Shown: in pieces, positions 5,401 to 41,436 of the stretch
Position numbering within the stretch: position 1 is the first letter of the stretch
Layout: each line of letters begins with the position of its first letter
DNA from: Phycisphaerae bacterium
Lineage (GTDB): Bacteria > Planctomycetota > Phycisphaerae > UBA1845 > Fen-1342
Length of the DNA stretch: 64,000 nt
Assembly (NCBI GenBank): GCA_030428945.1
Contig: JAUIEC010000001.1
Location: 156,438-220,437, forward strand
Direction of reading: 5' to 3'
Made by a program: the position numbers and the translations under genes
The notes under the pieces: generated by a model
Databases searched by the model: none
What the model saw: the letters and a program-made list of their open reading frames with translations, nothing else
What the model was told of the DNA's origin: nothing

Positions 5401-7160
5401 CGGCCGAAGTTGCGGAGCACGACGGCCAGGTCGCTGAGGGTGACCGCCTGGTCGCCGGTGACATCGCCGGCCTGGGTGGCGGTTCGGCCGAAGTTGGTCA
5501 GGACCGTCTCGAGGTCGGCCAGGTCGATCGTCGCGCTGCCGTCCGTGTCGCCCGCGCAGGTCTCGGCCAGGAGCAGGCGCTGGTTGACCGGCACGTCGTG
5601 CAGTTCGCTGACCGTTCCGGACGCCGGCCAGGTGACCCAGACGCGGTGCAGCACGCTGACCGGGCGATCGAAGCCGAAGTGGGCGAGCGTCTCGTTCTGT
5701 GACATGAAGTTGCTGGCCGCCCGCAGTTCGCGCATCTGGACGGGGCTTTCGGGGGTGGCCTGCACGCGGACGACGGCGCCGATGCCTTCACGGCTGGTGA
5801 GCGTGCCGCGGAGGGTCACCTGCAGCCAGGCCCGCTGGCTGCCGCCGTCGTTGCGGTACAGCATCGGCGTGTCGGCGTTGTTGGCGATGAACAGGTCCAG
5901 GTCGCCGTCGCGGTCGTAGTCGAAGACGACCAGTCCCTTGCCCGAGCGGGTGTCGGTCAGCCCGACCGAGGTCGAGACCTCGGGCATCAGGCCCGGGCCG
6001 TCGTTGCGCCAGAGCTTCATCGGATCGTGGTTGAAGCGGTCCTCGTTGGTCAGGAACGGGAAGTCGACGCCGTTGGTCATCACCAGGTCGAGGTCGCCGT
6101 CGTTGTCGTAGTCGAGGAACGAAGCGCCCCAGCCCCAGCCGCCATCGCGCACGCCGCGGGCGTCGGTCTGATCGCTGAACAGCGAGTCGCCCTCGTTCTG
6201 GTAGAAGCGGTTGCCGCTTCCGTCCCAGTCGCCGAACGGTGCGTTCGGGTCGAAGATCGCGGTGACGAACCAGTCGAGGTCGCCGTCGTTGTCGTAGTCG
6301 CCGATCGCCGAGCCCATCCCGTTCTCGTCGGTCCCGACCCGGGCCGCTTCGGTCACATCCTCGAAGCTCCCGTTGCGGCGGTTGCGGTAGTAGCGGCTCG
6401 TGACGAAGTCGCCGGCGTGAACCAGGTCGGCCCAGCCGTCGCCGTCCATGTCGCTGAACGCGCCCGACCAGCCCTCGACCTCGTCCCGGAAACTGACGCC
6501 CTGCCGCGGAATCCGCTCGAAGACGCGGGCCGCTTCGGTCACGTCGACGAACGCGCCCCCCTCGTTGTGATACAGCGCGTTGGCCGGGTTGTCGGCCGAC
6601 CAGGTCCAGACCACCAGGTCCAGCCTGCCGTCCAGGTCGTAGTCGCCGAAGGCCGCGCTGCTCGGGCCGCGCTCGACGCCGCCGGTCATCGCCACGCCCC
6701 AGGCGGCCGCCTCCTCGCGAAACGTGCCGTCGCCGTTGTTCAGGTAGAGGAAGTTCTGCCCGTTGCGGTTGATCGTCAGCAGGTACAGGTCGACCCAGCC
6801 GTCGTTGTTGACGTCGCCCCAGATGCAGCCCGAACTGCGGCCGCTGAAGTCGACGCCGGCCGTCGCGGCCACATCCGCGAAGGTTCCGTCGCCCAGGTTG
6901 CGGTACAGCAGGTTCGGCTGGCGGACGCGGGTGACGTACAGGTCGACCCAGCCGTCGTTGTCGAAGTCGGCCGCGGCGGCGCCGCCGACCATGTAGGCGA
7001 GACTGGCGTTCGGGCCGGCGAGCGGGATTCCGTCCCAGTGGCTGGCCGAGACGCCGGCGGTGGTCGTTACGTCGGTGAAGGTCACGACCGGGTCGTCAGC
7101 GCGGGCGATGCCGCTCAACCCACAGAGGGCGATCACCACCCGCCATTGCGGCTTCCACAT
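5388..7160 (-). CDS. FG-GAP repeat / ASPIC-UnbV (CRTAC1-like) secreted protein with C-terminal dockerin-type repeats
   Basis: Repeated DxDGDGxxDL and FxNxGDGTF motifs. The C-terminus GDTDGSATIDLADLETVL...GDVTGDQAVTLSDLAVVLRNFG is dockerin type I-like. Signal peptide after the internal Met (MWKPQWRVVIALCGLSGIARA). The ORF track begins at a TTG upstream. Confidence 0.8.
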   Translation of the reverse strand: MWKPQWRVVIALCGLSGIARADDPVVTFTDVTTTAGVSASHWDGIPLAGPNASLAYMVGGAAAADFDNDGWVDLYVTRVRQPNLLYRNLGDGTFADVAATAGVDFSGRSSGCIWGDVNNDGWVDLYLLTINRNGQNFLYLNNGDGTFREEAAAWGVAMTGGVERGPSSAAFGDYDLDGRLDLVVWTWSADNPANALYHNEGGAFVDVTEAARVFERIPRQGVSFRDEVEGWSGAFSDMDGDGWADLVHAGDFVTSRYYRNRRNGSFEDVTEAARVGTDENGMGSAIGDYDNDGDLDWFVTAIFDPNAPFGDWDGSGNRFYQNEGDSLFSDQTDARGVRDGGWGWGASFLDYDNDGDLDLVMTNGVDFPFLTNEDRFNHDPMKLWRNDGPGLMPEVSTSVGLTDTRSGKGLVVFDYDRDGDLDLFIANNADTPMLYRNDGGSQRAWLQVTLRGTLTSREGIGAVVRVQATPESPVQMRELRAASNFMSQNETLAHFGFDRPVSVLHRVWVTWPASGTVSELHDVPVNQRLLLAETCAGDTDGSATIDLADLETVLTNFGRTATQAGDVTGDQAVTLSDLAVVLRNFGRNCH

Positions 7161-7381
7161 CACGATTGCACTCCCGCAGCGCGGTCCGAACGGACCCGAC
7201 AGAATTTCGCGCTGTCTACCAGCCGTCGCCCGAAGCGGCAACGAAGTGATTCAAACTCGCATTGTATCGCGCAGCCCGCACGACACAGAAGACACTGCTC
7301 AGCAGCTCAAGAGCAGTACCGCCGGAGCGCGAGCGACAGCAGGCTTGCTCCCTCGCTCCCTGGCTCCCTCGCTCCCTCTCC

Positions 7382-9142
7382 TCAGTGACACGCCCGGCCG
7401 AAGTTGCGCAGCAGGAGTGCCAGGTCGCTCAGTCCGACCAGGCCGTCGGCGTCGAAGTCGCCTTCGCCGGGGCCGGCGGCCGGTCCGCCGAAGCGCACCA
7501 GCAGTTGCTCGAGGTCGTCGAGCGCGATCGACAGGTCGCCGTTCGTGTCGCCGGCGCAGGGCTCGGTCACGAGGATCCGCTGGTTCAGCGGCACGTCGGT
7601 CAGGCGCTGCGTCAGTCCGCTGGCCGGCCAGGTCACCCGGACCTCGGCGACGCTCGTCACTTCGCGGTCGAAGCCGAAGTGCGCGATCGGTTCGTTCTGC
7701 GACAGGAAGTTGTTGCCGCCGGTCATCTCGTGCATCTGGACCGGGCTGTCGGCCGTGGCCTGCACGCGGATCCGGGCGCCGAGTCCGGCCGAGTTGGTCA
7801 GCGTGCCGCGCAGGGCGACCTGGAGCCAGTCGCGCTGATTGCCGCCGTCGTTGCGGTACAGAACCGGCATCTCGAGGTTGTTGGCGATGACGATGTCCTG
7901 GTCGCCGTCGCGGTCGTAGTCCAGCACCGCCAGGCCCTTGCCGCTGCGATCGTCGTCAAAGCCGAGGGCCGCGCCGGTCTCGTTCATCAGGCCGCCGCCG
8001 ATGTTCTCCCACAGTCGCACCGGGGTGATGTTGAACAGGTTCTCGATGAACGTGTACGGGTAATTCACCCCGTTGGTCATCGCCAGGTCGAGGTCGCCGT
8101 CGTTGTCGTAGTCGAGGAACGAAGCGCCCCAGCCCCAGTCGCCGTCCCGGGTGGTCGTCACATCGGTGTAGTCCGAGAACAGCGAATCGCCCTCGTTGCG
8201 ATAGAAGCGGTTCCCCGTGGTCCCCCACAGGCCGACCTGGTCGTCCCAGATCGACGTGACGAACCAGTCCAGGTCGCCGTCGTGGTCGTAGTCGCCGAGG
8301 GCCGAGCCCATTCCGTTCTCGTCGGTGCCAAGCTGACCCGCCACCGTCCGGTCACTGAAGGTTCCGTCACGCTCATTGCGGTAGTAGCGGCTCGTCAGGA
8401 AATCGCCGGCCGTCACCAGGTCGACCCAGCCGTCGTTGTCCATGTCCGCGAAACTGCCGGACCAGCCGAACACTTCGCGGCCGCCGATCCGTCCGAACAC
8501 GTTGGCCGCCTCGGTCACCTCGGTGAAGTGTCCGCTGCCGTCGTTCTGGAACAGGGCGTTACCGGGGTCCGTGAAGGACCACTCCCAGACCACCAGGTCC
8601 AGGTCGCCATCCAGGTCGTAGTCGCCGAAGGCCGAACTCGAGTAGTAGCGGTCCTCGCCGCCCGCCATCGCCACGCCCCGGGCGGCCGCGTCCTCGGTGA
8701 AGGTTCCGTCGCCGTTGTTGATGTACAGCAGGTTGACCCCGTTGCGGCGGAAGACGGTCACGTACAGGTCCGGCCAGCCGTCGTTGTTGACGTCGCCCCA
8801 CATGCCGCCGGCGCTGCGTCCGCTGAAGTCGACGCCGGCCGTCGCGGCGACATCCTCGAAGGTCCCGTCGCCGAGGTTCCGCCACAGGCTGTTGGGGGTC
8901 AGCAGGCGGGTGACGTACAGGTCGGTCCAGCCGTCCTGGTCGAAGTCGCCGGCCGAGACGCCCGCGACCATGTACCAGTAGTCGACTTCGCCGGGCTGGT
9001 TCGGCAGCACGCCGTCCCAGTGCATGACCTCGATGCCGGCGGCGGCGGTCACATCGGTGAAGCCGACCGGTGTGGGATCCAGCGCCAGGCCCGGAACGGC
9101 CGGCGCGAGCAGCGCAATCGAACTCAGAACGATCCGCCTCAT
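7382..9142 (-). CDS. FG-GAP repeat / ASPIC-UnbV (CRTAC1-like) secreted protein with a C-terminal dockerin-like domain (tandem paralog)
   Basis: Co-linear similarity to 5388-7160 (GVDFSGRS..GDVNNDGW.DLY, UnbV-like RVTWPASG). Signal peptide MRRIVLSSIALLAPAVPGLA. Followed by a GGGAGCGA tract at 7344-7381. Confidence 0.8.
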   Translation of the reverse strand: MRRIVLSSIALLAPAVPGLALDPTPVGFTDVTAAAGIEVMHWDGVLPNQPGEVDYWYMVAGVSAGDFDQDGWTDLYVTRLLTPNSLWRNLGDGTFEDVAATAGVDFSGRSAGGMWGDVNNDGWPDLYVTVFRRNGVNLLYINNGDGTFTEDAAARGVAMAGGEDRYYSSSAFGDYDLDGDLDLVVWEWSFTDPGNALFQNDGSGHFTEVTEAANVFGRIGGREVFGWSGSFADMDNDGWVDLVTAGDFLTSRYYRNERDGTFSDRTVAGQLGTDENGMGSALGDYDHDGDLDWFVTSIWDDQVGLWGTTGNRFYRNEGDSLFSDYTDVTTTRDGDWGWGASFLDYDNDGDLDLAMTNGVNYPYTFIENLFNITPVRLWENIGGGLMNETGAALGFDDDRSGKGLAVLDYDRDGDQDIVIANNLEMPVLYRNDGGNQRDWLQVALRGTLTNSAGLGARIRVQATADSPVQMHEMTGGNNFLSQNEPIAHFGFDREVTSVAEVRVTWPASGLTQRLTDVPLNQRILVTEPCAGDTNGDLSIALDDLEQLLVRFGGPAAGPGEGDFDADGLVGLSDLALLLRNFGRACH

Positions 9143-18878: not shown

Positions 18879-20318
18879 ATGTTGAGACGAAGCATCTGTT
18901 CCCTGGGACTGCTGGCGGCCGCGAGCCTGCTGCCGCCGGCGGGGGCCCAGGTCACGGGGACGGCGCCGCGGGTGACGGTGGCCGAGCGACTCGGCCTGCG
19001 GCAGGTGGACGTTCAGTCGCTGGCGATCACCGAGATGGACCGCGGGGTCGAGGTGGAGCTGGCGCTGGCGGGCACGCCGCTGACGATCGAGGCGGTCCGG
19101 GTCAGCCTGCGGACGAGTGATTTCGAAGTGCTGGTCGAGGACGCGACCGGGCTGCGGCGTGTGGCGGCGCCGCCGCCGACGACGATTCGCGGGGCGATCC
19201 GGGAGATTCCGGGCAGTTACGTGAGCGGGTCGCTGTTCGAGGGTTCGCTGCGGGTCCGGATCATGCTTTCGCGGGACGAGGTCTTCTTCGTGCAGCCGGT
19301 TCCGAACGCGGCGGCGGACGCGCACGCGGTCTACGGCTACTGGGACGTGCTGCCGGTGGACAATGGCTGCGCGCTGCCGGACGAGGTGCCGACGGCGGGC
19401 TTCGAGGCGGCGGACCCGCCAGCGGCGGGGTCGGGTGATCCGGCCCCGTCGGGCGAGGACGAGACGCCGACGTACCTGCGGGCGTTCTATCCGCGGCACA
19501 CCGAGATTTCGTGGGACACCGACACGCAGTTCGTCAACGGTGAAGGCGGTGCCGAGGCGGCGCTCAACTACATCGAGACGGTGATGGTCGGGGTGGACGA
19601 CATCTATCGCACGAACGCGCAGATCGCCTACGTGCTGAACCGGATCATCATTCGGACGGCCGAGCCGGACCCGTACACGTCGAGCGACTCGTCGACGCTG
19701 CTGGGGCAGGTGCGGTCCGAGTGGAACGGGAACCTGTCGGCGCTCGAGCGCGACGTCGTGCACCTGTTCAGCGGGCGCGACTTCGAGCAGAACGTGATCG
19801 GCCGGGCGTACTTCGCCGGTATCTGCAACACGGACGGGTACGGCGTGAACCAGCGGATCACGAACTTCGCGAACCAGGTCGGCGAGGTTGCGCACGAGCT
19901 GGGGCACAACTGGAACGCGGCCCACTGTGCGGAAATCGTGGGCGGCAACTGTCCGACGAACGCGCCGGCGGACTGCGGCATCATGTGCGCCTGCATCGCC
20001 GGCTGCAACGGCAGCACGACCGTGTTCGGCGCGGCGTCGCTGAACAGCATCATCACGCACCGCAACGGGCGGACGTGTCTGAACGGCGAGGAACTGGTCG
20101 TGTACGTGGATGCGGCCGCGACCGGAACCGAATCCGGGACGAGCGGGGCGCCGTACGACACGCTGCGCGAGGGGCTCTGGGCGTCGCCGCCGACCGGTGG
20201 CACGCTGGAGATCGCGGGTTCCGCGCTGTACTTCGAAGACGGCGTGCTCGATCGGCTGAACCGGCCGGTGATCTTGCGCGGGCAGCCCGGTACGGGGGCG
20301 GCGCTGATTCAGCGGTAA
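18879..20318 (+). CDS. Secreted zinc metalloprotease, metzincin / reprolysin (M12B)-like with a propeptide
   Basis: Extended zinc motif HELGHNWNAAH (HExxHxxxxxH). Cys-rich segment after the catalytic domain. Signal peptide. The start lies 16 bp after the stop of 16995-18863. Confidence 0.7.
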   Translation: MLRRSICSLGLLAAASLLPPAGAQVTGTAPRVTVAERLGLRQVDVQSLAITEMDRGVEVELALAGTPLTIEAVRVSLRTSDFEVLVEDATGLRRVAAPPPTTIRGAIREIPGSYVSGSLFEGSLRVRIMLSRDEVFFVQPVPNAAADAHAVYGYWDVLPVDNGCALPDEVPTAGFEAADPPAAGSGDPAPSGEDETPTYLRAFYPRHTEISWDTDTQFVNGEGGAEAALNYIETVMVGVDDIYRTNAQIAYVLNRIIIRTAEPDPYTSSDSSTLLGQVRSEWNGNLSALERDVVHLFSGRDFEQNVIGRAYFAGICNTDGYGVNQRITNFANQVGEVAHELGHNWNAAHCAEIVGGNCPTNAPADCGIMCACIAGCNGSTTVFGAASLNSIITHRNGRTCLNGEELVVYVDAAATGTESGTSGAPYDTLREGLWASPPTGGTLEIAGSALYFEDGVLDRLNRPVILRGQPGTGAALIQR

Positions 20319-23701: not shown

Positions 23702-26056
23702 GTGACGCCGATTGTCGGCGGGAGGATGCCAATGCCGTCAGCGAGTCGCCCCGCCAACCAGGCCGACTTCACCTTCGAGATCGATCAGCCGGACACGCCC
23801 GCGCTGCGGGTGACCGGCTTCCGCGGCCAGGCCGCGCTGAGCACGCTGTTCCACGTGCAGGTCGACCTGGCGTCGGATGAACCGGCGCTCGACAAGGCCG
23901 CGCTGCTCGGGCAGGCCTGCCGGCTGACGCTCCGGTCGCCGCGCGGCGATCGGTTCATCTCGGGCATCGTCCGCGCGCTGGCCCGCACCGGGCAGGGGTC
24001 GCGGGTGACGCACTACGCGGCCGAGATCGTGCCGGTGCACTGGTACCTGACCCGCCGGCAGCAGTCGCGGATTCTGCAGAGTCACCTCTGCACGGACATG
24101 AGTGTCCCGGGCGTGATCCAGCACGTGCTGGAAAAGGCCGGCATTCCGGACACGCACTTCCGCTTCGCGTTGCAGGGCACCTATCCGCAGCGTGAGTGCG
24201 TCGTGCAGTACCGCGAGACGGACATGAACTTCATCGCGCGGCTGATGGAGATCGAAGGCCTGCACTTCTTCTTCGAGCACGAGGCGGACCGGCATGTGCT
24301 GGTGATCGCCGACGGCGACGTCGCGCACGTGCCGGGCGAGGGGATCGAGGAGATCGCCTTTCGCGCGCCGACCGGCCTGGTGCCGGCCGAGACCTGCGCG
24401 TTCGAACTGGAGGATCGGCGGGCGATCGAGGTCGACGCGGTTTCGCTGGACGATTTCGACTTCAAGAATCCGGCCCAGCAGTTGCGGGCCCGGCTGGAAG
24501 GTCCGGACGCGCCGGCCCTCGAGACGGTCGACTATCCCGGCTGCTACGTGACCCGCGGCGATGGCGAGCGCTACGCCCGCGTGCGACTGGAGGCCGAGCA
24601 GGTCGGGCGGCACGTCGTCCGCCTGCGGGCCAATGTCCGCGGGCTGCGCCCGGGCTCGACCTTTCACCTGGTCGATCATCCGGCCGCCGAGTGCAACCGC
24701 GAGTACCTGGTGATCGCGGCCGAGGAGCAGGCCGCCCAGCCACAGAGCGTGACGAACGAGGCGGGCGCGGCCGAGGCCCCGCAGTACCGGGTGCTGCTGA
24801 CGCTGATTCCGGTGGAGGTGCCGTACCGGGCGCCGCTGGACACGCCGGTCCCGCGGGTGGCGGGCAGCCAGACGGCGCTGGTGGTCGGTCCGCCGGGCGA
24901 GGAGATCTGGCCGGACGAGTACGGACGGGTCAAGGTGCAGTTCCACTGGGACCAGGCCGGGACGTACAACGAGGAGAGTTCGGCCTGGATCCGGGTCAGC
25001 CAGGGGTGGGCCGGCGGGCGTTACGGGATGTTCTTCCTGCCGCGGGTCGGGCAGGAGGTGGTGGTCGATTTCCTGGAGGCGAACCCGGATCGGCCGCTGA
25101 TCACGGGCAGCGTCTACAACAAGGACAACATGCCGCCGGTGCAGTTGCCGGAGGACAAGACCTGCAGCACGATCAAGTCGCGCAGCACGGTCGGCGGGGG
25201 CGGGGCGAACGAACTGCGGTTCGACGATCGCAAGGACGAGGAACTGCTGTTCCTGCACGCCCAGAAGAACCTTCACCTGCGGGCGCTGAACGACGCGATC
25301 GAGACGATCGGGGCGAACCGGCACTCGCACGTGTCGGGCGACGTGATCAGCGAGGTCTCGAAGAACGTCTCGACCGCGATCGAACTGGATCGCTGCGAGC
25401 AGATCGGCGGGAACGCCTCGCTGTCGATCACGGGTGACCAGATCGAGGTGGTGTCCGGCAATCAATCGGTCGATGTCGGCGGCGGGCAGACCTTGACCTG
25501 CGGCGGCACGGTCGTGGTCGAATCGAGCACGGGCATCACGCTGAAGGTCGGCGGCAACTTCCTGACGATCGACCCGAGCGGGATCTACCTGATGGGTACG
25601 GTCGTGCACGTCAACGGCGCCGGCGCGGCTCTGAACGGCACGTCGCTCGAAGCGCTCGAGACCGGCGAGGCGGCCGTGGCGGCCACGACCGAGCCGGGCA
25701 CGGACGTCACCTACCAGGCCGATCCGGATACGCCGGGACAGATCGAGGCGACGCTGCAGCAGGTCGCCGACGCGGACGAGGACCAGGCCGAAGACGAGGC
25801 GAGCTGGGTCGAGATCGAACTGGTGGACCAGAACGGGCTGCCGGTGGCCGGCGAGGCCTGGGAACTGATTTCGCCGAGCGGGAAGACCTACAGCGGCAGC
25901 CTGGACGCCAACGGCCGGTCGCACGTGGCCGTCGATCAGCCGGGGACCTGCCAGGTCAGCTTCCCGCGACTCGACCGGCGGGCCTGGTCGCGGACAGGCG
26001 GAGAGCAGGCGGCCGCGACGGCCGCGGGTGGCGCGACGCAGGAGGGCTCGGCATGA
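23702..26056 (+). CDS. vgrG: Type VI secretion system spike protein VgrG
   Basis: gp5 OB-fold hallmark RVGQEVVVDFLEANPDRPLITGSVYN. gp27-like N-terminal domain and a beta-helical repeat region (GNASLSITGDQIEVVSGNQSVDVGGGQ...). About 90-aa C-terminal extension after an acidic linker. The start may be M9 or M11 (23726 or 23732). Confidence 0.9.
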   Translation: MTPIVGGRMPMPSASRPANQADFTFEIDQPDTPALRVTGFRGQAALSTLFHVQVDLASDEPALDKAALLGQACRLTLRSPRGDRFISGIVRALARTGQGSRVTHYAAEIVPVHWYLTRRQQSRILQSHLCTDMSVPGVIQHVLEKAGIPDTHFRFALQGTYPQRECVVQYRETDMNFIARLMEIEGLHFFFEHEADRHVLVIADGDVAHVPGEGIEEIAFRAPTGLVPAETCAFELEDRRAIEVDAVSLDDFDFKNPAQQLRARLEGPDAPALETVDYPGCYVTRGDGERYARVRLEAEQVGRHVVRLRANVRGLRPGSTFHLVDHPAAECNREYLVIAAEEQAAQPQSVTNEAGAAEAPQYRVLLTLIPVEVPYRAPLDTPVPRVAGSQTALVVGPPGEEIWPDEYGRVKVQFHWDQAGTYNEESSAWIRVSQGWAGGRYGMFFLPRVGQEVVVDFLEANPDRPLITGSVYNKDNMPPVQLPEDKTCSTIKSRSTVGGGGANELRFDDRKDEELLFLHAQKNLHLRALNDAIETIGANRHSHVSGDVISEVSKNVSTAIELDRCEQIGGNASLSITGDQIEVVSGNQSVDVGGGQTLTCGGTVVVESSTGITLKVGGNFLTIDPSGIYLMGTVVHVNGAGAALNGTSLEALETGEAAVAATTEPGTDVTYQADPDTPGQIEATLQQVADADEDQAEDEASWVEIELVDQNGLPVAGEAWELISPSGKTYSGSLDANGRSHVAVDQPGTCQVSFPRLDRRAWSRTGGEQAAATAAGGATQEGSA

Positions 26057-26955
26057 GCAACCCGACCGACGATTCGTTTTCCGTGCGACTGAGCCAGGCG
26101 GCGGGGGGCGGGCAGGCGCCGGCCGATCCGCGGGAGGAGATTGGCGAACTGCCGAACCGCAGGTCGACGGAGCCGGCTGCGCAGCCGCAGGAGGCCGCGT
26201 TCAATCCGCTGGACTCGTTCGCGGCCCGGCTGGAGTCGCACCTGGACCAGGCGGCGCCGCAGCAGCAGGAACCGGCGGCGCCGCGCGTCGCGCCGGACGC
26301 GGTGATCCGGGCCGAGGCGTGCGGGGCCGGTGCGCACGAGGTGGCCCGCGGCGCGTGCCTGGCGGGGATCGCGCGGCAGGTCGGGCACGACTGGGAGACG
26401 ATCTGGAACGACCCGGCCAACGCGCCGGTGCGCGAGGCGCGTCAGGACCCGAACCTGCTGCTGGCGGGTGACCGGCTGCACATTCCGCCGCAGGAGGCCA
26501 AGCAGGAGTCGGTGGCGACGGAGGCCCGGCATCGGTTCGTGCTGCACAGCGCGCCGGTGCGGCTGGTGCTGCAGTTGAAGGACGAGGCCGGCAAGCCGCG
26601 GGCGAACCTGGCGTACACGCTGGAGGTCGACGGTGCGGCGCGGGAGGGCTTCACCGATCCGAGCGGGACGCTGCGCGAGTTCGTGCCGGCCGAAGCCCGC
26701 GAGGCGCTGCTGACGCTGACGGAATCGGGCGAGGCCTATCCGTTGCGGCTGGGGGCCCTGCAGACGGCCGAGGCGTGTGGCGGCGTGCAGGCGCGGCTGA
26801 ACAACCTGGGTTTCCACTGTGGTCCGCCGAGCGGGCAGTGGGACGAGCGGACGCGGCTGGCGCTGAAGGCATTCCAGGGTCGCGAGGGCCTGCCGGCGCA
26901 CGGAGAACTGGACGAGGCGACGCTGCAGCGCCTGCGGGCGACGCACAGGAGTTAG
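26053..26955 (+). CDS. LysM-like plus peptidoglycan-binding (PGBD_1-like) domain protein, no signal peptide
   Basis: LysM-like HEVARGACLAGIARQVGHDWETIWNDPAN...LLLAGDRLHIP. PG-binding-like GVQARLNNLGFHCGPPSGQWDERTRLALKAFQGREGLPAHGELDEATLQRL. ATGA overlap with the vgrG stop. Confidence 0.7.
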   Translation: MSNPTDDSFSVRLSQAAGGGQAPADPREEIGELPNRRSTEPAAQPQEAAFNPLDSFAARLESHLDQAAPQQQEPAAPRVAPDAVIRAEACGAGAHEVARGACLAGIARQVGHDWETIWNDPANAPVREARQDPNLLLAGDRLHIPPQEAKQESVATEARHRFVLHSAPVRLVLQLKDEAGKPRANLAYTLEVDGAAREGFTDPSGTLREFVPAEAREALLTLTESGEAYPLRLGALQTAEACGGVQARLNNLGFHCGPPSGQWDERTRLALKAFQGREGLPAHGELDEATLQRLRATHRS

Positions 26956-27014: not shown

Positions 27015-28028
27015 ATGGCGGTGTCAACGACGACTTCGAGTGATGCGATCTTTGCGGACTGGATGCAGAAGGCGCTGACGTTTCCGGATCCGGGGCATGG
27101 TCACCGGCACAAGCCGATCAACATCTCGTGCTGGATCGCGCTGCATGCCGAGCAACTGGTGGTGACGGTGCACACGGTCTGTTACTCGCAGTATTTCAAC
27201 GACACGCATCGCCAGGGCTGGACCAGCGGGATCAAGTCGTGCTGGGACGGCGAGTTCCTGATCGAGGCCGACGCGACGCCGGGCGGCGGGCACGATGTGC
27301 CGCTGTCGGTGCCGGGCACCGAGACGCCGGCCGTGCTGCGGCCGCAGACCTGGCAGGTTCCGATCGTGTTCGATCCGCGGTTCTACAAGAGCGGCGATCC
27401 GAATGCGCCGGCCAACGCCGACTGTTCGCCGCCGATTCATCGGATCGTCGACCCGGCCGTCGAGCGCGGTGACACGAACAACTGGTGGGGCAAGGACAGG
27501 AATCCGCAGGACACGATGGGGCACATGGCCGCCCACGAGTTCGGGCATTACATCGGCTGCGGGGACGAGTACGGGCTGCACGAGGCGGCCTTCCAGAGCG
27601 TGGTCGGTCGGGCGCCGCGTCCGGACGAGCGGATGGTCGGCAAGGACGGCGTCCCGAACGGGCTGTACAGCACGCACGACAGCATCATGGGGTTGTACAC
27701 GGATCAGTTTCCGAAGCGGCGGCACGCCGAGATGATCGTGGACTGGCTGAACGAGACATACGTGCCGCGGCAGAGCCTGGTCGAGCGCTTCATCCTGCGG
27801 ACCTATGACGAACTGGGCGGGGATCCGATCGGGGAGAACGACTGGTCGTGGTACACGGTCCAGGAGGGCGAGTGGCTGTCGCACATCGCCGAGCGGCACG
27901 GCTACACCTGGGATCAGCTCTACAACTACGACCCGGTCGGCGGCGAGCCGAACCGCATGCTGCTGAGCAGCGGCGACCCGAACCTGATCTATCCCGGCGA
28001 ACAGATTCGCGTTCCGAACGGAGGCTGA
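27015..28028 (+). CDS. HExxH zinc metallopeptidase-like protein with a C-terminal LysM domain (candidate T6SS effector)
   Basis: HEFGHYIGCGDEYG (HExxH plus a downstream acidic GDEY). C-terminal LysM YTVQEGEWLSHIAERHGYTWDQLYNYD...GDPNLIYPGEQIRVP. No signal peptide. GGAG located before the ATG at 27015. Confidence 0.7.
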   Translation: MAVSTTTSSDAIFADWMQKALTFPDPGHGHRHKPINISCWIALHAEQLVVTVHTVCYSQYFNDTHRQGWTSGIKSCWDGEFLIEADATPGGGHDVPLSVPGTETPAVLRPQTWQVPIVFDPRFYKSGDPNAPANADCSPPIHRIVDPAVERGDTNNWWGKDRNPQDTMGHMAAHEFGHYIGCGDEYGLHEAAFQSVVGRAPRPDERMVGKDGVPNGLYSTHDSIMGLYTDQFPKRRHAEMIVDWLNETYVPRQSLVERFILRTYDELGGDPIGENDWSWYTVQEGEWLSHIAERHGYTWDQLYNYDPVGGEPNRMLLSSGDPNLIYPGEQIRVPNGG

Positions 28029-28030
28029 AC

Positions 28031-28858
28031 GTGCCGGCTGCCGCCCGCGTACTGGACACGACTTCGCACGGTACACCGCTGATGCCCGGACCCGGCAGCA
28101 GTGACGTGCTGATCGGCATGCTGCCGGCCTGGCGGGCGCTGCCGGCGGGAGTCGGCGCGGGGCTCGAATCGGCCTCGTCGCAGATGCAGTCGCTGATGTC
28201 GTCGCCGAGCCTGACGCCCGTGGATGCGACCGCCACGCTGGTGCAGGTGCAGACCGGGCTGGCGCAGTCGGCGGCGGCGGCCACCGCGGACGGAAACATG
28301 TCGGCCCTGCCGAGCACGGCCTCGGCGATGGTCAGCCTGAACGCGACCAACGCGGCGCTGACGGCCACCTACCTGGCGGCCGCGGCGGTGCCGGGCGGCG
28401 CGGCGGCCGCGGGCGTGGCGTATGCGCAGGGTCTGCAGGCGGCGGCCGCGGCAACCGTCGGGGCGGCGTTCCAGGCGATCGCGGGGACGACCGACCTGCA
28501 CAACTGTCCGATTCCCTGTCCGATCCCGCCGCACGGACCGGGGGTGGTGACGCAGGCGAGCACGAGCGTGTTCGTCAACAACCTGCCGGCCGTGCGGCAG
28601 GCGGACAACGTGGTCGAGGCCTGCGGCGGTTCGAACGCGATCGCGATGGGGGCGCCGACCGTGTTCATCGGGGACCAGGGCGGCAGCAGTTCGCCGGCGG
28701 GGCAGAGCGGGTCCTCGGTGACGGGGGCGGTGGCGAGTTTCGTGGCGACGGTCGCGGACGTGATCGCGGCGGCGACGGTGATCATGCAGAACGAGGCGGC
28801 GGCGACGAGCGGTGCGGCGTTGTGCGAGGTCTGCGACGATTCGGGGGCGGGCACATGA
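28031..28858 (+). CDS. PAAR-domain protein with an Ala/Ser-rich insertion
   Basis: GTG start gives MPAAARVLDTTSHGTPLMPGPGSSDVLIGMLPAWRA (PAAR motif 1). The C-terminal HNCPIPCPIPPHG...NLPAVRQADNVVEACGGSNAIAMGAPTVFIG is PAAR motif 2. GGAGG RBS located 5 nt upstream inside the preceding gene. Confidence 0.8.
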   Translation: MPAAARVLDTTSHGTPLMPGPGSSDVLIGMLPAWRALPAGVGAGLESASSQMQSLMSSPSLTPVDATATLVQVQTGLAQSAAAATADGNMSALPSTASAMVSLNATNAALTATYLAAAAVPGGAAAAGVAYAQGLQAAAAATVGAAFQAIAGTTDLHNCPIPCPIPPHGPGVVTQASTSVFVNNLPAVRQADNVVEACGGSNAIAMGAPTVFIGDQGGSSSPAGQSGSSVTGAVASFVATVADVIAAATVIMQNEAAATSGAALCEVCDDSGAGT

Positions 28859-29241
28859 AGCCGGTGTTCACGCTGCGCGACGCGCACCTGGAGGCGTTTG
28901 CCGCGGCGGCGCGGGAGAGCTTCGAGGATCGCATGCTGGCGCACGTCCGCCTGGCGTTTCGCGCGCGGCATGACGAACTGGGCGCGGTCGAGTCCCGCCG
29001 CTGGGTCCGCAGCGGGATCGAGCGGGCGGCCGACTACGGGATCACGGTCGAACGGGACGTCAGTCGCTTCATCCGGCTGATGTTTCAACTGGGTGAGAAC
29101 TTCGACCGCGGGCAGGCCCGGGCGATGCTGGCGCGGCGCGACGTGCCGGCCGCGCTGCGGTTGAACCGGGTGCTGACGATGGCGGTCAGTTCGGGGGCCC
29201 TGCCGGCCGGGACGGTGCGGGCGGTGGAGGCGGAGTCGTGA
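28855..29241 (+). CDS. Hypothetical 128-aa cytoplasmic protein in the vgrG operon
   Basis: ACATGA stop/start overlap with the PAAR gene. Coding-like bias. No signal peptide or recognisable motif. Confidence 0.55.
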   Translation: MKPVFTLRDAHLEAFAAAARESFEDRMLAHVRLAFRARHDELGAVESRRWVRSGIERAADYGITVERDVSRFIRLMFQLGENFDRGQARAMLARRDVPAALRLNRVLTMAVSSGALPAGTVRAVEAES

Positions 29242-30425
29242 GGCTGACAAAGCTGACGCTGCACTACCTGCTCTGCGTGCAGTCGCAGGAGGGGGCGACG
29301 GTCGGGGGCATCAACGTGTCGGATGACGAGATCCGGCTGGAGCTGGGCAGCCTGGTGGTTGCGCGGGCGAACATGCTGCCGGGTCAGACGCTGACCGACT
29401 TCAGCCAGAGCGTGTTCGAGTTCGAGCACGCCCCGGAGTTCCGGCTGTACGAGGAGGACGTCGAGTACGTCGGGGACGGCGACGACCTGCTGGGGGCCTG
29501 GACGGTCGAGACGGTCAAGGGCGTGCACGTGGCGCACTTCGCGCAGAGCGGGGCCTACTACATGCTGCAGTACGAGGTCGAGCCGCCGCCGGATCCGACC
29601 AGCCCCTCGGAGCGGTGCGGCGCGCCGCCGGGCGAGACGCTCGCGTACGTGACCTGCGGGCACGACGTGCCGGAGTCGCAGCGGTTCGACGAGTACCGCG
29701 AGATCATCGAATCGCTCGGGGTGTTCCTTGAGGACGGCTACAACCTGATCGGGCTGCGGTGCCTGGACTACGAGACGCGCGAGATCGTCGAGAACACCTG
29801 GAACGCCTGGAACGACACGCTGGCGGTCGTCTGGCTGGACGCGGCCGGGACCAAGCGGGTGGTCGAGTACCAGGGCACCTGCGATCCGGGCAAGCACTCC
29901 AAGACCGCGCACGAGGATGGCGAGGATGCCAATCCGAACGGGCTGGCGCACCTCTGTGACGGGCAGTGGGAGTACGAGTGCGGCTATCACCACGGCAGCT
30001 ATCCGTGCCTGGTGCAGAAAGAGGACGTGACGGTCTGGCGGAGCCAGTTCGGCGATGACGGCTGGGCGAACAACACCTTCGAGGAAGGCGAGCAGACCGA
30101 CACGGGCATCTTCGGGATCAACATTCACGCCTCGAAGGACAACTCGTCGGGCGTCTACAACTGGTCGGCCGGCTGCCAGGTGTTCCGCAGTTCGAAGGGC
30201 GCGGGCACGCGTTACGCCGAGGTGATGGGCTCGGGGACCAAGGGCGATTCCGAGCACGGCGGATACGTCGGCGAGCATTTCGAGACGCACGACGTGATCT
30301 ACTACACGGTCGTGACGGCCCGGGAGAAGGGCACCGAAGAGGACAACGTGCCGTGCGCGTGCGAGGCCGGGGACGGTGAGGTCGGGGCCGGGAGCGTGGC
30401 GTGTCCACAGGAGGGTGCCTCGTGA
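29238..30425 (+). CDS. Hypothetical 395-aa protein with a YkuD (L,D-transpeptidase fold)-like Cys/His motif (candidate effector)
   Basis: GTGA overlap with the preceding gene. The segment GIFGINIHAS...GVYNWSAGCQVFRS resembles the YkuD HG...SHGCIR active-site region. No signal peptide. Confidence 0.5.
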   Translation: MRLTKLTLHYLLCVQSQEGATVGGINVSDDEIRLELGSLVVARANMLPGQTLTDFSQSVFEFEHAPEFRLYEEDVEYVGDGDDLLGAWTVETVKGVHVAHFAQSGAYYMLQYEVEPPPDPTSPSERCGAPPGETLAYVTCGHDVPESQRFDEYREIIESLGVFLEDGYNLIGLRCLDYETREIVENTWNAWNDTLAVVWLDAAGTKRVVEYQGTCDPGKHSKTAHEDGEDANPNGLAHLCDGQWEYECGYHHGSYPCLVQKEDVTVWRSQFGDDGWANNTFEEGEQTDTGIFGINIHASKDNSSGVYNWSAGCQVFRSSKGAGTRYAEVMGSGTKGDSEHGGYVGEHFETHDVIYYTVVTAREKGTEEDNVPCACEAGDGEVGAGSVACPQEGAS

Positions 30426-30955
30426 TTGCCGAGCGCGTGCTCGAGCCGCTGCAGCGGGGGCTGCGGGCCGGTGACCAGGCGGGGCTGCACTGGTACGCGG
30501 TGGTCGACGCCGCGCAGCCGCTGGATGCGATCCGGCGGGTGCGGGTGGCGCGGCGCAAGAACCGGACGCTGTACCAGGGACGGCTCGGGGCCCTGGCACA
30601 CGCGGCGGCGCCGTACCTGGTGGAACTGGACCTGCAGGACAACCTGACGGCCTGGCTGCTGGCGCACGGGAGCCAGCACTGGGGGATCCTGCTGCAGTCA
30701 TCGGCCGACTTCGAGACGGTTCGACAGCACCTGCGGCGGTTCCTGGTGGTCAGCGATCCGGAGGGTCGTCGGCAGCGGTTCCGGTTCTACGATCCGCGGA
30801 TCCTGCGTGCGTTCCTGCCGGTCTGCACGGGCGAAGAGGCGGCCAGGTTCTTCGGTCCGGTCAAGCGGTACTACGCGGTGGGGCGCGACCTGCTCGACTG
30901 GGAGCGCTTCTCGGCCGTCTCGCGCGGCGTGCATCGGGAGCAGGTAAGCAGGTAA
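30401..30955 (+). CDS. DUF4123-like protein (T6SS effector adaptor Tap/Tec family)
   Basis: LHWYAVVDAAQPLDAIRRV...RTLYQGRLGALAHAAAPYLVELD matches the DUF4123 LYALxDGA...L(Y/F)xG...APxLV pattern. An alternative GTG start at 30422 overlaps the upstream stop. The last codons and the TAA stop are supplied by the heptamer tract. Confidence 0.55.
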   Translation: MSTGGCLVIAERVLEPLQRGLRAGDQAGLHWYAVVDAAQPLDAIRRVRVARRKNRTLYQGRLGALAHAAAPYLVELDLQDNLTAWLLAHGSQHWGILLQSSADFETVRQHLRRFLVVSDPEGRRQRFRFYDPRILRAFLPVCTGEEAARFFGPVKRYYAVGRDLLDWERFSAVSRGVHREQVSR

Positions 30956-30996
30956 GCAGGTGAGCACGTAAGCACGTAGGCAAGCAGCAAGTGACC
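30939..30996 (+). repeat. GCAAGTRA-type heptamer tract (family A) overlapping the end of the DUF4123 gene
   Basis: gagcaggtaagcaggtaagcaggtgagcacgtaagcacgtaggcaagcagcaagtga. Confidence 0.8.
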
Positions 30997-39702: not shown

Positions 39703-41391
39703 ATGTTTCGCGTTATCGGCATTCCTGTCGCGCTACTGTTGTGCGCGAGCACCGGCCCGGCCCAGACATTCAGCGAGGTCAGCGGCCTGCGTGGCGTGGA
39801 TTACCTGGTGGAGGTCACCACCTCGTACGGATCCGGCGTGCTGCTGGCCGACCTGGACGGCGATGACGACCTCGACATGGTCGCGCTCGGGGACCTGGGC
39901 GGGCCCGGCCTGTTCGAGAACGTGGGCAATGCGTTCTTCGTCGAGCATCCGTCGATTCCGCTCGCGTCCGGGGCGGCCGGGATTGCATCGGCGCTGAGTG
40001 CGGCCGACTACGACGGGGACGGCGACCGCGACCTGCTGATCACGGTCTGGGAGGGTCCGAACAGCCTGTTCCGCAATGACGGCAATTTCACGTTCACCGA
40101 TGTTTCGGCGGTGGCGGGGCTGGACGATGACGGGATCGGGATGGGCAGCACCTGGGGCGACTACGACGGCGACGGCTGGCTGGACCTGTACGTCAGCAAC
40201 CGTTCGGGGACGACGCTGTCGGGTGGCGGCCAGGACTTCCAGCCGAACCGCCTGTACCGCAACCTCGGGGACGGCACGTTCGAGGAGCGGGCGGTGCTGG
40301 AGACGGTTGACGCGGGGATCGCTCCGACGCTGCAGGCGACGTTCGTCGATCTGGATCGCGACGGTGACGTCGAACTGTACCTGGCGAACGACAAGGGTTC
40401 GTACTCGAACTGCATGTCGTGGCGGAACCAGTTGTGGGACAACCAGAACGGCAGCCTGGTCGAGATCTCGTCGACGTCGGGCACCGACGTCTGCGTCGAT
40501 TCGATGACGATCACGCTCGGCGACGTCAACCAGGACGGGCTGCTGGACATCTACACGACCAACACGCCCGAAGGGAACGCCCTGATGGTGCAGGATCCGA
40601 ACGGGCACTTCCGCGAGGTGGCCGGCGCATACGGCGTGCTGGTCAATCAGCTCAGTTGGGGCGCGGTGTTGATCGACTACGACCTGGACCAGGATCAGGA
40701 CCTGTATGTCTGCAACGCGACCAGCTTCAACATGATGTTCCGCAACGAGCCGACGCTGCCCTGGCCGCAGGTGGCCTTCGCGCTCGGGCTGGCCGACATC
40801 AGTGTCTCGTACTGCGTGGCCCAGGGTGACCTGGACGACGACGGTGACGTCGACATGATTCTCTCGAGCGACGACACGCGCCTGAAGGTGCTGATCAACA
40901 ACGCGGCGACGGGCAACTCGCTGCAGGTCCGCCCGATCGGTGCCTGGCCGAACTACGACGCGATCGGCGCGACGATCCTGGTCGAGGCGGGCGGCGTCAC
41001 GCAGGTCCGTGCGGTTGCGGCCGGGAGTGCGTACAAGTCGCAGCACGAACTGCGGCAGACCTACGGGCTCGGCGGCCACACCAGCGCGGACCGGATCGAG
41101 ATCATCTGGCCGGGCGGTGAGATGCGGGAACTGTTCGACTACCCGGCCGGCAGTTGGCTGGCGATTCCGGACGGTCTGCTGGGCGACTTCAACCGGGACG
41201 GTATTCTGAATCACCGCGATGCGCGGCGGCTGAAGGGCTGCCTGTCGGCGGCGACGTTCGAGCCGGGCTGCGAGTGTTTCGACTTCGACGGCGACGCGGA
41301 CGTGGACGTGCTGGACGCGATCGAGTTCGGCCTGCGGCGCGGCGGTGCGACGAGGGTTCCGGCCGCGTCGGGCGGCGGGGTGATTCCGTAA
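39703..41391 (+). CDS. FG-GAP repeat / ASPIC-UnbV (CRTAC1-like) secreted protein with a dockerin-like C-terminus (third paralog)
   Basis: DLDGDDDLD, DYDGDGDRDL, GDYDGDGWLDLYV and the UnbV-like VRAVAAGSAYKSQHE. C-terminal GDFNRDGILNHRDARRLKGCL and FDGDADVDVLD. Signal peptide. Confidence 0.8.
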   Translation: MFRVIGIPVALLLCASTGPAQTFSEVSGLRGVDYLVEVTTSYGSGVLLADLDGDDDLDMVALGDLGGPGLFENVGNAFFVEHPSIPLASGAAGIASALSAADYDGDGDRDLLITVWEGPNSLFRNDGNFTFTDVSAVAGLDDDGIGMGSTWGDYDGDGWLDLYVSNRSGTTLSGGGQDFQPNRLYRNLGDGTFEERAVLETVDAGIAPTLQATFVDLDRDGDVELYLANDKGSYSNCMSWRNQLWDNQNGSLVEISSTSGTDVCVDSMTITLGDVNQDGLLDIYTTNTPEGNALMVQDPNGHFREVAGAYGVLVNQLSWGAVLIDYDLDQDQDLYVCNATSFNMMFRNEPTLPWPQVAFALGLADISVSYCVAQGDLDDDGDVDMILSSDDTRLKVLINNAATGNSLQVRPIGAWPNYDAIGATILVEAGGVTQVRAVAAGSAYKSQHELRQTYGLGGHTSADRIEIIWPGGEMRELFDYPAGSWLAIPDGLLGDFNRDGILNHRDARRLKGCLSAATFEPGCECFDFDGDADVDVLDAIEFGLRRGGATRVPAASGGGVIP

Positions 41392-41436
41392 GCAAGTCAG
41401 CAAGTGAGCAAGTAAGCAAGTAAGCACGTGAGCGCG
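41389..41436 (+). repeat. GCAAGTRA heptamer tract (family A); the gene's TAA stop is part of the first unit
   Basis: gtaagcaagtcagcaagtgagcaagtaagcaagtaagcacgtgagc. Confidence 0.8.

Follow-up and report, generated by a model that had tools for sequence, protein, structure and literature searches.

The gene described here encodes a predicted, previously unclassified zinc protease from a rare sequence family without a curated model. The protein is a credible new toxin that we infer to be secreted. With moderate confidence, it is regarded as a metzincin cargo effector of a T6SS VgrG spike that would be recruited by the neighbouring protein p300 and would act on a protein or peptide substrate in the recipient envelope. 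All coordinates refer to the window, which is the whole stretch of 64,000 nucleotides that was analysed.

Target gene and product

27015..28028, + strand: target gene, metzincin-LysM protein of 337 aa; uninterrupted ORF, ATG start, TGA stop

The same 337-aa product was obtained from an independent gene call (Logan/NCBI contig), and the GC3 of 0.88 was like that of the other real genes of the window. ATG 27015 was favoured over an upstream GTG at 26979 because the start of the homolog P0002 is at the corresponding position. The original prediction had described an ORF with an HExxH motif, a C-terminal LysM and no signal peptide. The ORF is real, the translation being intact and the second gene call in agreement, and hydropathy likewise detected neither a signal peptide nor a transmembrane (TM) segment. 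The surrounding DNA is 68% GC and carries Ser/Thr kinases with TPR and an ECF sigma factor, features that suggested a myxobacterial origin; this idea was set aside because the nearest VgrGs all come from planctomycetes, and a planctomycete is the probable source.

Operon and neighbouring genes

The target is the third gene of a single operon, whose other genes are, in order:

23702..26056, + strand: vgrG, 784 aa, spike protein opening the operon (Pfam: Phage_GPD E 3e-75, Phage_base_V, Gp5_trimer_C)
26053..26955, + strand: p300, 300 aa (PG_binding_1 E 1.6e-12), candidate VgrG-cargo adaptor or co-effector
28031..28858, + strand: PAAR protein, 275 aa, spike tip (PAAR_motif E 4e-10)
28855..30425, + strand: two unknown genes of 128 aa and 395 aa, translationally coupled with 4-nt overlaps
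30422..30955, + strand: T6SS adaptor or chaperone of the DUF4123 type, closing the operon (Pfam DUF4123 E 1e-29)

The operon is translationally coupled by 4-nt overlaps, the PAAR gene starting 2 nt past the target stop codon, and none of its products has a signal peptide or TM segment. The closest relatives of vgrG are VgrGs from Planctomycetota/Phycisphaerae MAGs (46-54% identical), and the PAAR protein carries an Ala-rich insertion of ~130 aa. The target had been placed between vgrG and PAAR. It does lie between them, but vgrG is not its direct neighbour, since p300 (26053-26955) intervenes.

No family match was found for the 128-aa and 395-aa genes in Pfam or NCBIfam; relatives of the former adjoin DUF4123 in other loci. 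The 395-aa gene was considered as a YkuD/L,D-transpeptidase-like effector (INIHAS...SAGC), for which Pfam (E ≤ 10), NCBIfam and PDB gave no support. A GCAGGTAAGC-like repeat flanking the cassette was considered as a cassette boundary and set aside as a genome-wide feature of gene 3' ends.

The interval from p300 to the target holds no ORF, and no immunity gene adjoins the target, the latter being unusual for an antibacterial T6SS effector. The vgrG island is auxiliary and is not part of a structural T6SS cluster. No T6SS core genes are present in the 64-kb window, and a functional T6SS in the source organism is therefore an assumption.

Catalytic domain

27132..27794, + strand: metzincin-type catalytic domain, aa ~40-260, common to the target and 25 other representative proteins
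27270..27350, + strand: ~25-aa insertion, aa ~86-112 (family alignment columns 55-80)
27534..27572, + strand: zinc-binding motif HEFGHYIGCGDEY, aa 174-186, in invariant columns and on predicted helix 168-179
27681..27692, + strand: candidate Met-turn S-I-M-G, aa 223-226 (M225), from conservation and sequence position
27720..27758, + strand: C-terminal helix of the catalytic domain, with R236, H237, W244 and N246 in near-invariant columns

The alignment of 26 homologs shows no variation at H174, E175, G177, H178, D184 or Y186, and conservation of at least 90% at G181, E185 and M225. Identity within the family is otherwise 25-35%. Because the motif residues are invariant in the 26 homologs, the HExxH of the target is not due to chance. 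The zinc motif has the metzincin form HEFGHYIGCGD (aa 174-184), its H, E, H, G and D being invariant in 23-26 homologs. Zinc is predicted to be bound by H174, H178 and D184, with E175 as the catalytic base. Of the GDEY stretch, suggested earlier to hold an acidic third ligand, D184 is the predicted one; it lies six, not the proposed seven, residues past the second His, which is exactly the canonical metzincin spacing. In sequence, M225 of the S-x-M-G stretch falls where a Met-turn is expected, past the third ligand and ahead of the C-terminal helix. The ~25-aa insertion occurs only in the LysM-fused subfamily (target, P0002 and P0003).

AlphaFold gave a pLDDT of 33 from the target sequence alone, and a usable model needed the 26-sequence alignment (pLDDT 80.5, pTM 0.73). 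Structure prediction, which had been suggested as a check, returned a metzincin-type fold with a five-stranded sheet and backing, active-site and C-terminal helices. In this model the active-site helix (predicted helix 168-179) bears the zinc motif, and predicted helix 239-248 is the C-terminal helix. The insertion was modelled at low confidence (pLDDT < 50 for aa 89-109).

Comparison with known peptidases

The metzincin criteria used here come from PMC12237041 and PMC3890501; those of the former include the motif and a Met-turn that follows the third ligand and precedes the C-terminal helix. The target core can be assigned to the metzincin clan (MEROPS MA(M)), outside any named family. The arrangement had been thought not to be assignable by name; this was too cautious for the clan, since HExxHxxGxxD with a Met-turn is the metzincin signature and the Asp third ligand is as in M6 and M7, and it stands for the family.

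The best PDB matches of the family profile were snapalysin M7 (E 0.004), myroilysin, M64 IgA protease and MMPs. Weak Pfam matches of individual family members were to M64 (12/23), M6 (11/23) and M7 (9/23), and also to reprolysin and M10. Foldseek searches of the PDB with the target recognised the LysM alone. Rh ammonium transporters returned by a short motif-only PDB query were discarded as chance matches. No non-toxin or housekeeping family was matched by the target in profile searches (Pfam, NCBIfam), in keeping with the original prediction.

Snapalysin (M7) and thuringilysin/InhA (M6) have the same HExxHxxGxxD spacing as the target, an Asp third ligand, a downstream Met and a C-terminal helix. 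The target motif aligns with snapalysin HETGHVLGLPDHY, with a Tyr two residues past the Asp in both (DEY versus DHY). However, a search for membership of snapalysin M7 (PF02031) or thuringilysin M6 (PF05547) gave the target no Pfam family at E ≤ 10, the NCBIfam M6 domain scored 16 bits against a cutoff of 110.8, and the M6/M7 matches of the family (best E 0.009-0.016) were far under the family thresholds and limited to the motif region. At ~220 aa, the target catalytic domain exceeds snapalysin (~132 aa) in size and falls far short of InhA, and its candidate Met-turn follows the Asp by ~40 residues, compared with ~10 in snapalysin (PMC3890501). M6 and M7 enzymes are Sec-secreted extracellular proteases and not contractile-injection cargo.

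Igalysins (M64) are defined by one additional residue ahead of the Gly, HExxHxxxGxxD (PMC12237041). Assignment to M64 was rejected on the motif spacing, which is HExxHxxGxxD in the target and all family members. The Pfam matches to M64 were all under the gathering score, and the target is without the second structural zinc site with Cys ligands.

Tox-MPTase1-5, Tox-HopH1 and the C-terminal metallopeptidase of VgrG2b embody the same concept, an HExxH peptidase as a T6SS/PVC-delivered toxin. Tox-MPTase1-5 and Tox-HopH1 are described as small, Wss1-like, RHS-linked and without the HExxHxxGxxD/Met-turn signature (Zhang et al. 2012). The target had no match at E ≤ 10 in the Pfam library, including any Tox-MPTase or HopH1 models in it; going by the description, Tox-MPTase1 is probably distinct from the target.

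Relatives of the catalytic domain

The family is rare, with 26 representatives among 1.84 billion proteins in an exhaustive HMMER search; a word-indexed search gave only 2-3 matches. No match was found in a scan of genome contigs with the close-subfamily alignment or in the first metagenome scan. Most of the 26 relatives are long proteins that end with the domain as their extreme C-terminal module. Three of them (P0006, P0007 and P0012) have an N-terminal eCIS_core/DUF4157 (E 1e-29 to 1e-32), and locus L086 is a tandem DUF4157 array. Two relatives have annexin repeats, a eukaryote-type membrane-binding domain, at the N-terminus.

An N-terminal DUF4157 with a C-terminal toxin is the layout of eCIS-associated toxins (PMC8213781), and P0006, P0007 and P0012 have their homolog of the target domain at the C-terminal end, in the toxin position. 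Since long proteins, DUF4157/eCIS ones among them, repeatedly end in this catalytic domain, it appears to behave as a portable toxin domain, in support of the toxin reading first proposed. The likeness to these three proteins has limits: identity is only ~27-31% and confined to the core, the target lies in a vgrG/PAAR/DUF4123 (T6SS-type) operon, and its subfamily gains the ~25-aa insertion and the LysM. No eCIS_core/DUF4157 was matched in the target or the neighbouring genes, the domain being carried by distant relatives only.

The distant relatives (~30% identity) have a conserved downstream gene, often with a lipoprotein-type signal. This partner was considered as the immunity protein of the target and rejected, as no homolog is present in the 64-kb window. 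The lipoprotein-type partners, which belong to relatives outside the target subfamily, give a hint of an envelope site of action.

LysM domain, p300 and the variable cargo slot

27846..28019, + strand: C-terminal LysM of the target, aa 278-335, subtype W..LYNY..GG..N..L.SGDPNLIYPGE.IRVP
26335-26490, + strand: divergent LysM of p300, aa ~95-146, reciprocally similar to the target LysM

The target LysM (PF01476) scored above the Pfam gathering score and has the beta-alpha-alpha-beta fold. It had been called a textbook example. It is a genuine LysM, but with a longer loop ahead of the last strand (Kbp/YgaU-like), because of which Pfam matches it in two pieces. It is also a swapped module, 51-64% identical, common to unrelated p300-linked peptidase cargo. 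Among p300-linked cargo, LysM was found on peptidase-like proteins only, namely three zincin types and one transglutaminase-like protein whose LysM was sub-threshold (Pfam E 0.0078, below the gathering score). In p300 itself, a disordered N-terminus precedes the LysM, which is followed by a central beta region and, at the C-terminus, by PG_binding_1 (aa 245-294).

A total of 103 p300 copies was found in 85 loci. The ORFs 3' of p300 (n = 88) fell into 33 clusters, and most of the ten cluster representatives checked had no Pfam family. vgrG adjoined p300 in at least 18 of 29 metagenomic loci and was not detected upstream of it in about 10 of the 29. In sister islands, p300 is directly 3' of vgrG, in one to three copies. 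The sister planctomycetal islands keep p300 and PAAR (the latter in L006-L009 and L011), with the target absent and unrelated genes in its slot. p300 is immediately upstream of the only close relatives of the target (loci L089 and L090). The p300-target pair thus recurs in 3/3 contexts of the close subfamily, and this shared upstream partner does not speak against the original prediction, as conserved synteny outside vgrG contexts would have. An operon with vgrG, PAAR and a DUF4123 adaptor, a slot that varies between related islands and a product without a signal peptide together support the reading of the target as secreted T6SS cargo.

LysM and PG_binding_1 are recurrent domains of vgrG loci, and proteins with these domains have been shown experimentally to bridge VgrG and effector; binding of a hydrolase effector to VgrG requires its fused LysM (PMC10673891). 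In LysM-assisted T6SS cargo (Kalk_10460/Kalk_10455 and BRPE67_05220), the gene order is vgrG, a stand-alone LysM protein, then the effector, as here. In contrast to the published cases (PMC10673891), in which the fused LysM precedes the toxin and the toxins are peptidoglycan (PG) hydrolases such as NlpC/P60, the target LysM is C-terminal and the enzyme a metzincin. The stand-alone protein here combines LysM with PG_binding_1 in tandem [p300-cargo] cassettes, an arrangement that differs from the published one. A PG-directed or cell-wall-anchored toxin had been proposed, a reading for which the LysM is the one basis. This part of the proposal is weakened by the demonstrated loading of VgrG by LysM/PG_binding_1 (PMC10673891), by the presence of the same swapped module on unrelated p300-linked cargo and by the absence of an adjacent immunity gene.

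Proposed mechanism and alternatives

Secretion, catalytic activity, substrate, site of action and the adaptor function of p300 are proposed here as a model. The target would be made without a signal peptide, as VgrG-spike cargo of a T6SS, its gene lying in an auxiliary vgrG island. Its core (aa ~40-260) would be a catalytically competent zinc endopeptidase with His174, His178 and Asp184 as ligands, Glu175 as base and Met225 in the Met-turn. p300 would recruit it to the VgrG/PAAR spike, as a cargo-specific adaptor or co-effector. The LysM of the target probably aids loading and/or holds the enzyme on peptidoglycan after delivery. After injection, the most likely event would be cleavage of a protein or peptide substrate in the recipient cell envelope.

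A more specific proposal, tentative and rather unlikely as a whole, is that the C-terminal LysM subtype is a dedicated loading tag read by p300 and not a wall anchor. The vgrG-[p300-cargo]n-PAAR arrays would then be a new cargo-recruitment system, widespread in Planctomycetota and other environmental phyla. Through it, many uncharacterised toxins would be delivered, the Asp-type metzincin among them. Planctomycetes could carry this metzincin without an immunity gene because they would lack its substrate.

It is considered unlikely that the target is a peptidoglycan hydrolase whose LysM docks on the sacculus while the metzincin, in the periplasm of the prey, cuts cross-links or stem peptides, leading to lysis. 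To our knowledge, no metzincin cleaves peptidoglycan, and the known zinc PG peptidases (M23, M15, M14 and M74) are none of them HExxH enzymes. The target matched no PG-hydrolase family in profile searches and has no periplasmic immunity gene beside it. Its genuine LysM, the PG_binding_1 of p300 and the restriction of LysM among p300-linked cargo to peptidase-like proteins (one of them sub-threshold) are consistent with wall hydrolysis, and the frequent lipoprotein partners of distant relatives suggest envelope action. [quoted passage not shown]

An anti-eukaryotic effector, with a host or grazer protein as substrate and the LysM purely as a loading tag, is likewise considered unlikely. A eukaryotic target would make an immunity gene unnecessary, and none adjoins the target; the other carriers of the domain are DUF4157/eCIS-type proteins, and annexin repeats occur at the N-terminus of two relatives. 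The four eCIS studied before the survey of PMC8213781 act on invertebrate hosts, but the same survey also reports antibacterial eCIS toxins, and the DUF4157 linkage therefore does not imply eukaryotic targets. The conserved downstream partner of the relatives, often a lipoprotein, resembles immunity against a bacterial-envelope toxin, and LysM and PG_binding_1, if functional binders, point to bacterial walls.

There is little to recommend the target as an accessory or processing factor, either for wall opening on the producer side (TagX/MltE-like) or as a maturation or releasing peptidase for spike cargo. PG-binding-type modules in two consecutive genes, the lack of an adjacent immunity gene and the occurrence of zincins as releasing peptidases in some polymorphic toxin systems (Zhang et al. 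2012) would fit such a role. However, none of the sister islands with vgrG, p300 and PAAR has the target, which therefore cannot count as a conserved accessory. Neither a signal peptide nor a TM segment would take it to the producer's own periplasm, its island is auxiliary rather than part of a structural T6SS cluster, and the DUF4157 proteins hold the domain in the C-terminal toxin position, DUF4157 itself being the putative processing zincin.

That the target is a degenerate, inactive peptidase-like module, a binding-only decoration of the spike, is scarcely credible, since H174, E175, H178, D184 and the Met-turn vary little or not at all in a family of otherwise 25-35% identity and selection for catalysis therefore seems to have acted.

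Implications

The concept of a LysM-bearing, secreted zincin effector encoded in a vgrG island is established, and the target extends it without altering it; the target is credible as a new metzincin toxin family of a known general kind. If confirmed, the family would be a new one among the metzincins, one of few with an Asp third zinc ligand and the first of these shown as contractile-injection cargo. The same toxin module would then be exchanged between eCIS (DUF4157-linked) and T6SS (vgrG-linked) delivery. The locus would also be a natural test of how the LysM of vgrG loci acts, whether in loading, in wall anchoring or in both. The surrounding architecture, in which a conserved p300 is followed by a highly polymorphic gene, sometimes as tandem cassettes between vgrG and PAAR, may outweigh the target gene itself. 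p300 followed by a variable gene would be a simple genomic rule for finding T6SS cargo in planctomycetes and other poorly studied phyla.

Gene and operon

The open reading frame at 27015-28028 (+) runs unbroken for 337 codons in translation, from ATG to TGA. Its GC3 of 0.88 is usual for the real genes of the window (window GC 68%), and an independent gene call on the public contig gave the same 337-aa product; the gene proposed in the original prediction is thus real. ATG 27015 was taken as the start rather than GTG 26979, because P0002, a close relative, starts at the equivalent residue. The gene order was as follows.

23702-26056, vgrG
26053-26955, p300 (300-aa LysM-like/PG_binding_1 protein)
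27015-28028 (+), metzincin-LysM protein (337 aa)
28031-28858, PAAR protein (275 aa)
28855-30425, two coupled genes for unknown proteins of 128 aa and 395 aa, between PAAR and DUF4123
thereafter, DUF4123 adaptor

Adjoining genes overlap by 4 nt or are separated by a 2-nt gap at five of the seven junctions, and the genes from vgrG to DUF4123 form one operon. The predicted position between vgrG and PAAR was borne out, with the addition that p300 also lies between vgrG and the metzincin gene. No signal peptide or TM segment was found in any product from vgrG through DUF4123, in line with the lack of a signal peptide previously noted for the metzincin protein. Since no other T6SS or eCIS structural genes were found within the 64-kb window, the locus was regarded as an auxiliary vgrG island. 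The closest VgrG relatives (46-54% identity, full length) all come from Planctomycetota/Phycisphaerae MAGs, so the host is itself probably a planctomycete.

The PAAR protein carries a ~130-aa Ala-rich insertion, probably helical, that separates its N-terminal PAAR motif from the C-terminal one, and its tail is rich in Ala and Ser. This unusual split form recurs in the planctomycetal sister islands L006-L009 and L011 and at several metagenomic loci. Relatives of the 128-aa protein adjoin DUF4123 genes at two other loci (L129, L157), which makes it a possible co-chaperone. The 395-aa protein had no match in Pfam, NCBIfam or PDB and may be a DUF4123-dependent effector. It contains INIHAS-(12)-NWSAGCQVF; a YkuD-type assignment, considered for the resemblance of this His/Cys motif, found no support in the same three databases.

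Catalytic domain

Residues 1-277 had no match in Pfam even at E ≤ 10, and the single NCBIfam match of the protein was M6, at 16 bits; no known non-toxin family was thus found by profile search. A single-sequence PDB search matched the LysM and nothing else. One related fragment was recovered by a word-indexed search of 5.8 billion clusters, and an exhaustive HMMER search through 1.84 billion representative proteins gave a family of 26. Full-length relatives were limited to P0002 (54% identity) and P0003 (44%), the other members aligning to aa ~40-260 only.

The predicted zincin HExxH with a downstream acidic GDEY (HEFGHYIGCGDEY) lies at aa 174-186. In the family alignment H174, E175, G177, H178, D184 and Y186 are invariant and G181, E185, M225, R236, H237, W244 and N246 near-invariant. 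[quoted passage not shown] The defining features of metzincins are the motif HExxHxxG/NxxH/D, a Met-turn, a C-terminal helix and a sheet of five strands accompanied by a backing helix and an active-site helix (PMC12237041). An Asp third ligand, as predicted here for D184, is rare among them and is found in snapalysins (M7) and thuringilysins (M6) (PMC12237041). Top matches of the family profile in the PDB, all limited to the motif region, were snapalysin (HETGHVLGLPDHY, E 0.004), myroilysin, M64 IgA protease and MMPs. Pfam scans of individual members gave M64 (12/23), M6 (11/23), M7 (9/23), reprolysin (8/23) and M10 (7/23), all sub-threshold and consistently metzincin families. From this pattern the protein is assigned to the metzincin clan as a predicted peptidase with an Asp third ligand at canonical spacing, and its family is, on sequence grounds, an uncurated one inside a known clan. 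The arrangement, at first left without a named peptidase family, can therefore be placed at clan level and still has no curated family. M6, M7 and M64 belong to MEROPS subclan MA(M) (PMC3890501). Sequence membership of M6 or M7 was not found, and M64 was rejected: igalysins have one additional residue ahead of the Gly (PMC12237041), whereas this family has the canonical HExxHxxGxxD.

A second metallopeptidase gene, reprolysin-like M12B (18879-20318; Reprolysin_5, E 1e-19), lies ~3 kb upstream of the island, separated from it by a Ser/Thr kinase-TPR gene and an ECF sigma factor on the opposite strand. Its product has no sequence relation to the metzincin-LysM protein.

Distant relatives

The domain reaches the last residue of a far longer protein in almost every distant relative (e.g. 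1040-1140 of 1158 aa; 613-704 of 712 aa). Three carriers, P0006, P0007 (a Kordia periserrulae DUF4157 protein) and P0012, bear eCIS_core/DUF4157 at the N-terminus (E 1e-29 to 1e-32), which is exactly the layout of eCIS-associated toxins, DUF4157 being N-terminal and the toxin C-terminal (PMC8213781). P0012 is encoded in a run of three DUF4157 genes arranged in tandem. Annexin repeats occur in two further carriers.

Six relatives were examined for the gene 3' of the metzincin. In five of them its product, of ~260-330 aa, comes from a single, loosely related family, with E-values of 1e-15 to 1e-22 between pairs and 1e-7 in the profile comparison across groups. These genes, immediately downstream and unannotated, were:

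L002:11876-12727
L003:11925-12770
L086:6857-7645
L004:7271-8095 (true start probably upstream)
L087:5252-6241

A common N-terminal motif of the family is ..GG.PP....L.I..DG......SW......AG... At the sixth relative (P0004, locus L088) the downstream gene, of 245 aa (L088:1105-1842), is unrelated and encodes a lipoprotein-type signal; such signals were also present downstream at L002, L004 (after 5' extension) and L087. From sequence features, the partner family looks like a candidate envelope-located immunity partner of the distant relatives. No homolog of it was found in the window, and no immunity gene adjoins the metzincin-LysM gene.

p300 and the variable, proposed cargo slot

Each island protein was searched against 80 VgrG loci. 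The sister planctomycetal islands among them keep p300 and PAAR and lack the metzincin-LysM gene. One p300 copy was present in L006, L008 and L010, two in L009 and three in L007, where the cassettes are in tandem, and at L008 a p300-like protein occurs as an 834-aa fusion. Genes after p300 in these islands are mutually unrelated; among their products are calcineurin-like phosphoesterases, a DUF5675-like protein, several unknown proteins and one of transglutaminase-like type whose N-terminal LysM is weak. A p300 homolog lies directly upstream of both close relatives of the metzincin-LysM gene, on independent metagenomic contigs (E 2e-72 for one homolog and 6e-16 for the other, which is partial), so that the pair is kept in 3/3 contexts.

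Scanning metagenomes with a p300 alignment gave 156 relatives; 80 loci were retained from these. In total, 103 p300 ORFs at 85 loci (L006-L010, L089-L170) were followed by 88 ORFs in 33 sequence clusters. At least 3 kb of upstream sequence was available for 29 loci; vgrG lay directly upstream of p300 at 18 or more of these and was not seen there at ~10. Eight of ten cargo cluster representatives tested had no Pfam match and two matched LysM only. By its sequence contexts, p300 is taken to define a cassette system of wide distribution, vgrG-[p300-variable gene]n-PAAR.

The p300 C-terminus is a robust PG_binding_1, and the protein also has a divergent LysM, missed by Pfam and significantly similar to that of the metzincin protein (per-comparison E 4e-7). 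LysM and PG_binding_1 are two of six domain families recurring in vgrG loci; a stand-alone LysM protein bridges VgrG and a downstream effector in co-immunoprecipitation, and a fused LysM is required for VgrG binding (PMC10673891). By analogy the locus fits this model, with p300 as putative cargo-specific adaptor or co-effector and the metzincin protein as its cargo.

LysM module

The predicted C-terminal LysM is genuine, passing the Pfam gathering threshold (E 9e-6 in the full protein; 1e-7 for the isolated tail). It is 51-64% identical to C-terminal or internal LysM domains of unrelated p300-linked cargo, and its 61% identity to the LysM of the ortholog P0003 is no higher. LysM-bearing cargo types include a ~700-aa family with HEFGHILNLGH and HENVMHW, and another with HELCHAFDNAH. 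As their catalytic parts have no significant similarity to that of the metzincin protein, the LysM is a swapped, system-specific module on peptidase-type cargo of these islands. Judged from sequence, such swapping is compatible with a loading tag and equally with a shared wall-anchoring need.

The ~700-aa family is the biggest cargo cluster (28/88). Members directly following p300, except at L128, where the member is upstream of the detected p300 copy, were:

L157:9665-11752
L151:1082-3160
L146:10719-12905
L117:2768-5032
L128:4415-6502

HEFGHILNLGH is a HExxHxxNxxH, the pappalysin-like Asn variant of the metzincin motif, and HENVMHW is a probable Met-turn. A Pro-rich linker leads to a C-terminal LysM 53-64% identical to that studied here. 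The member in L010 also matches Metallophos.

Other features of the window

The following were also recorded.

84-118, 14940, 26958, 30939-30982, 41407-41425, 42033, 53982-54000, 61935-61969; 5106-5376 (minus): octamer tandem repeat (AGCARGTA)n, ...TAAGCAGGTAAGCAGG...
5388-9142 and 39703-41391: three paralogous FG-GAP/ASPIC-UnbV repeat proteins, ~560-620 aa
31214-32782: SPFH/Band_7 protein, 522 aa, N-terminal TM segments

Matches to AGCAGGTAAGC with at most one mismatch numbered 26 in the window against 0.34 expected by chance; 5.5 repeat copies follow DUF4123. At the seven sites compared with gene ends (14940, 26958, 30939, 41407, 53982, 61935 and 5334-5376 (minus)), the repeat lies just 3' of a stop codon, oriented as the upstream gene. 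With a period of 8 and TAA in each unit, three copies give stops in all three frames. The element might be a terminator or back-stop, or a genome-specific repeat. The SPFH/Band_7 gene, 258 nt downstream of DUF4123, was not found in sister islands and is probably a separate transcription unit.

Proposed function

The reading somewhat favoured is that the protein is exported as a predicted active Asp-type metzincin, that p300 would load it onto the VgrG/PAAR spike with a contribution from its LysM, and that it would cut a protein or peptide of the recipient's envelope. This reading is weakened by the lack of an adjacent immunity gene and of T6SS core genes in the window. The secreted toxin originally predicted, peptidoglycan-directed or wall-anchored, keeps its support as cargo from the slot and the toxin-module relatives; direct peptidoglycan cleavage, to which the LysM is the sole pointer, is unlikely, and no metzincin is known to have such activity. 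An anti-eukaryotic role would agree with the missing immunity gene and with the eCIS and annexin relatives of the domain, and is considered quite improbable. A producer-side accessory or processing factor is very unlikely, given the absence of the gene from sister islands and of an export signal.

Zincin toxins in T6SS and PVC systems (Zhang et al. 2012) and LysM-assisted T6SS effectors (PMC10673891) are established. The LysM here is C-terminal, whereas it is N-terminal in PMC10673891. New here are an uncurated, very rare metzincin family, the occurrence of that family both in a vgrG island and in DUF4157/eCIS-type proteins, the C-terminal LysM module, and the cassette organisation vgrG-[p300-cargo]n-PAAR.
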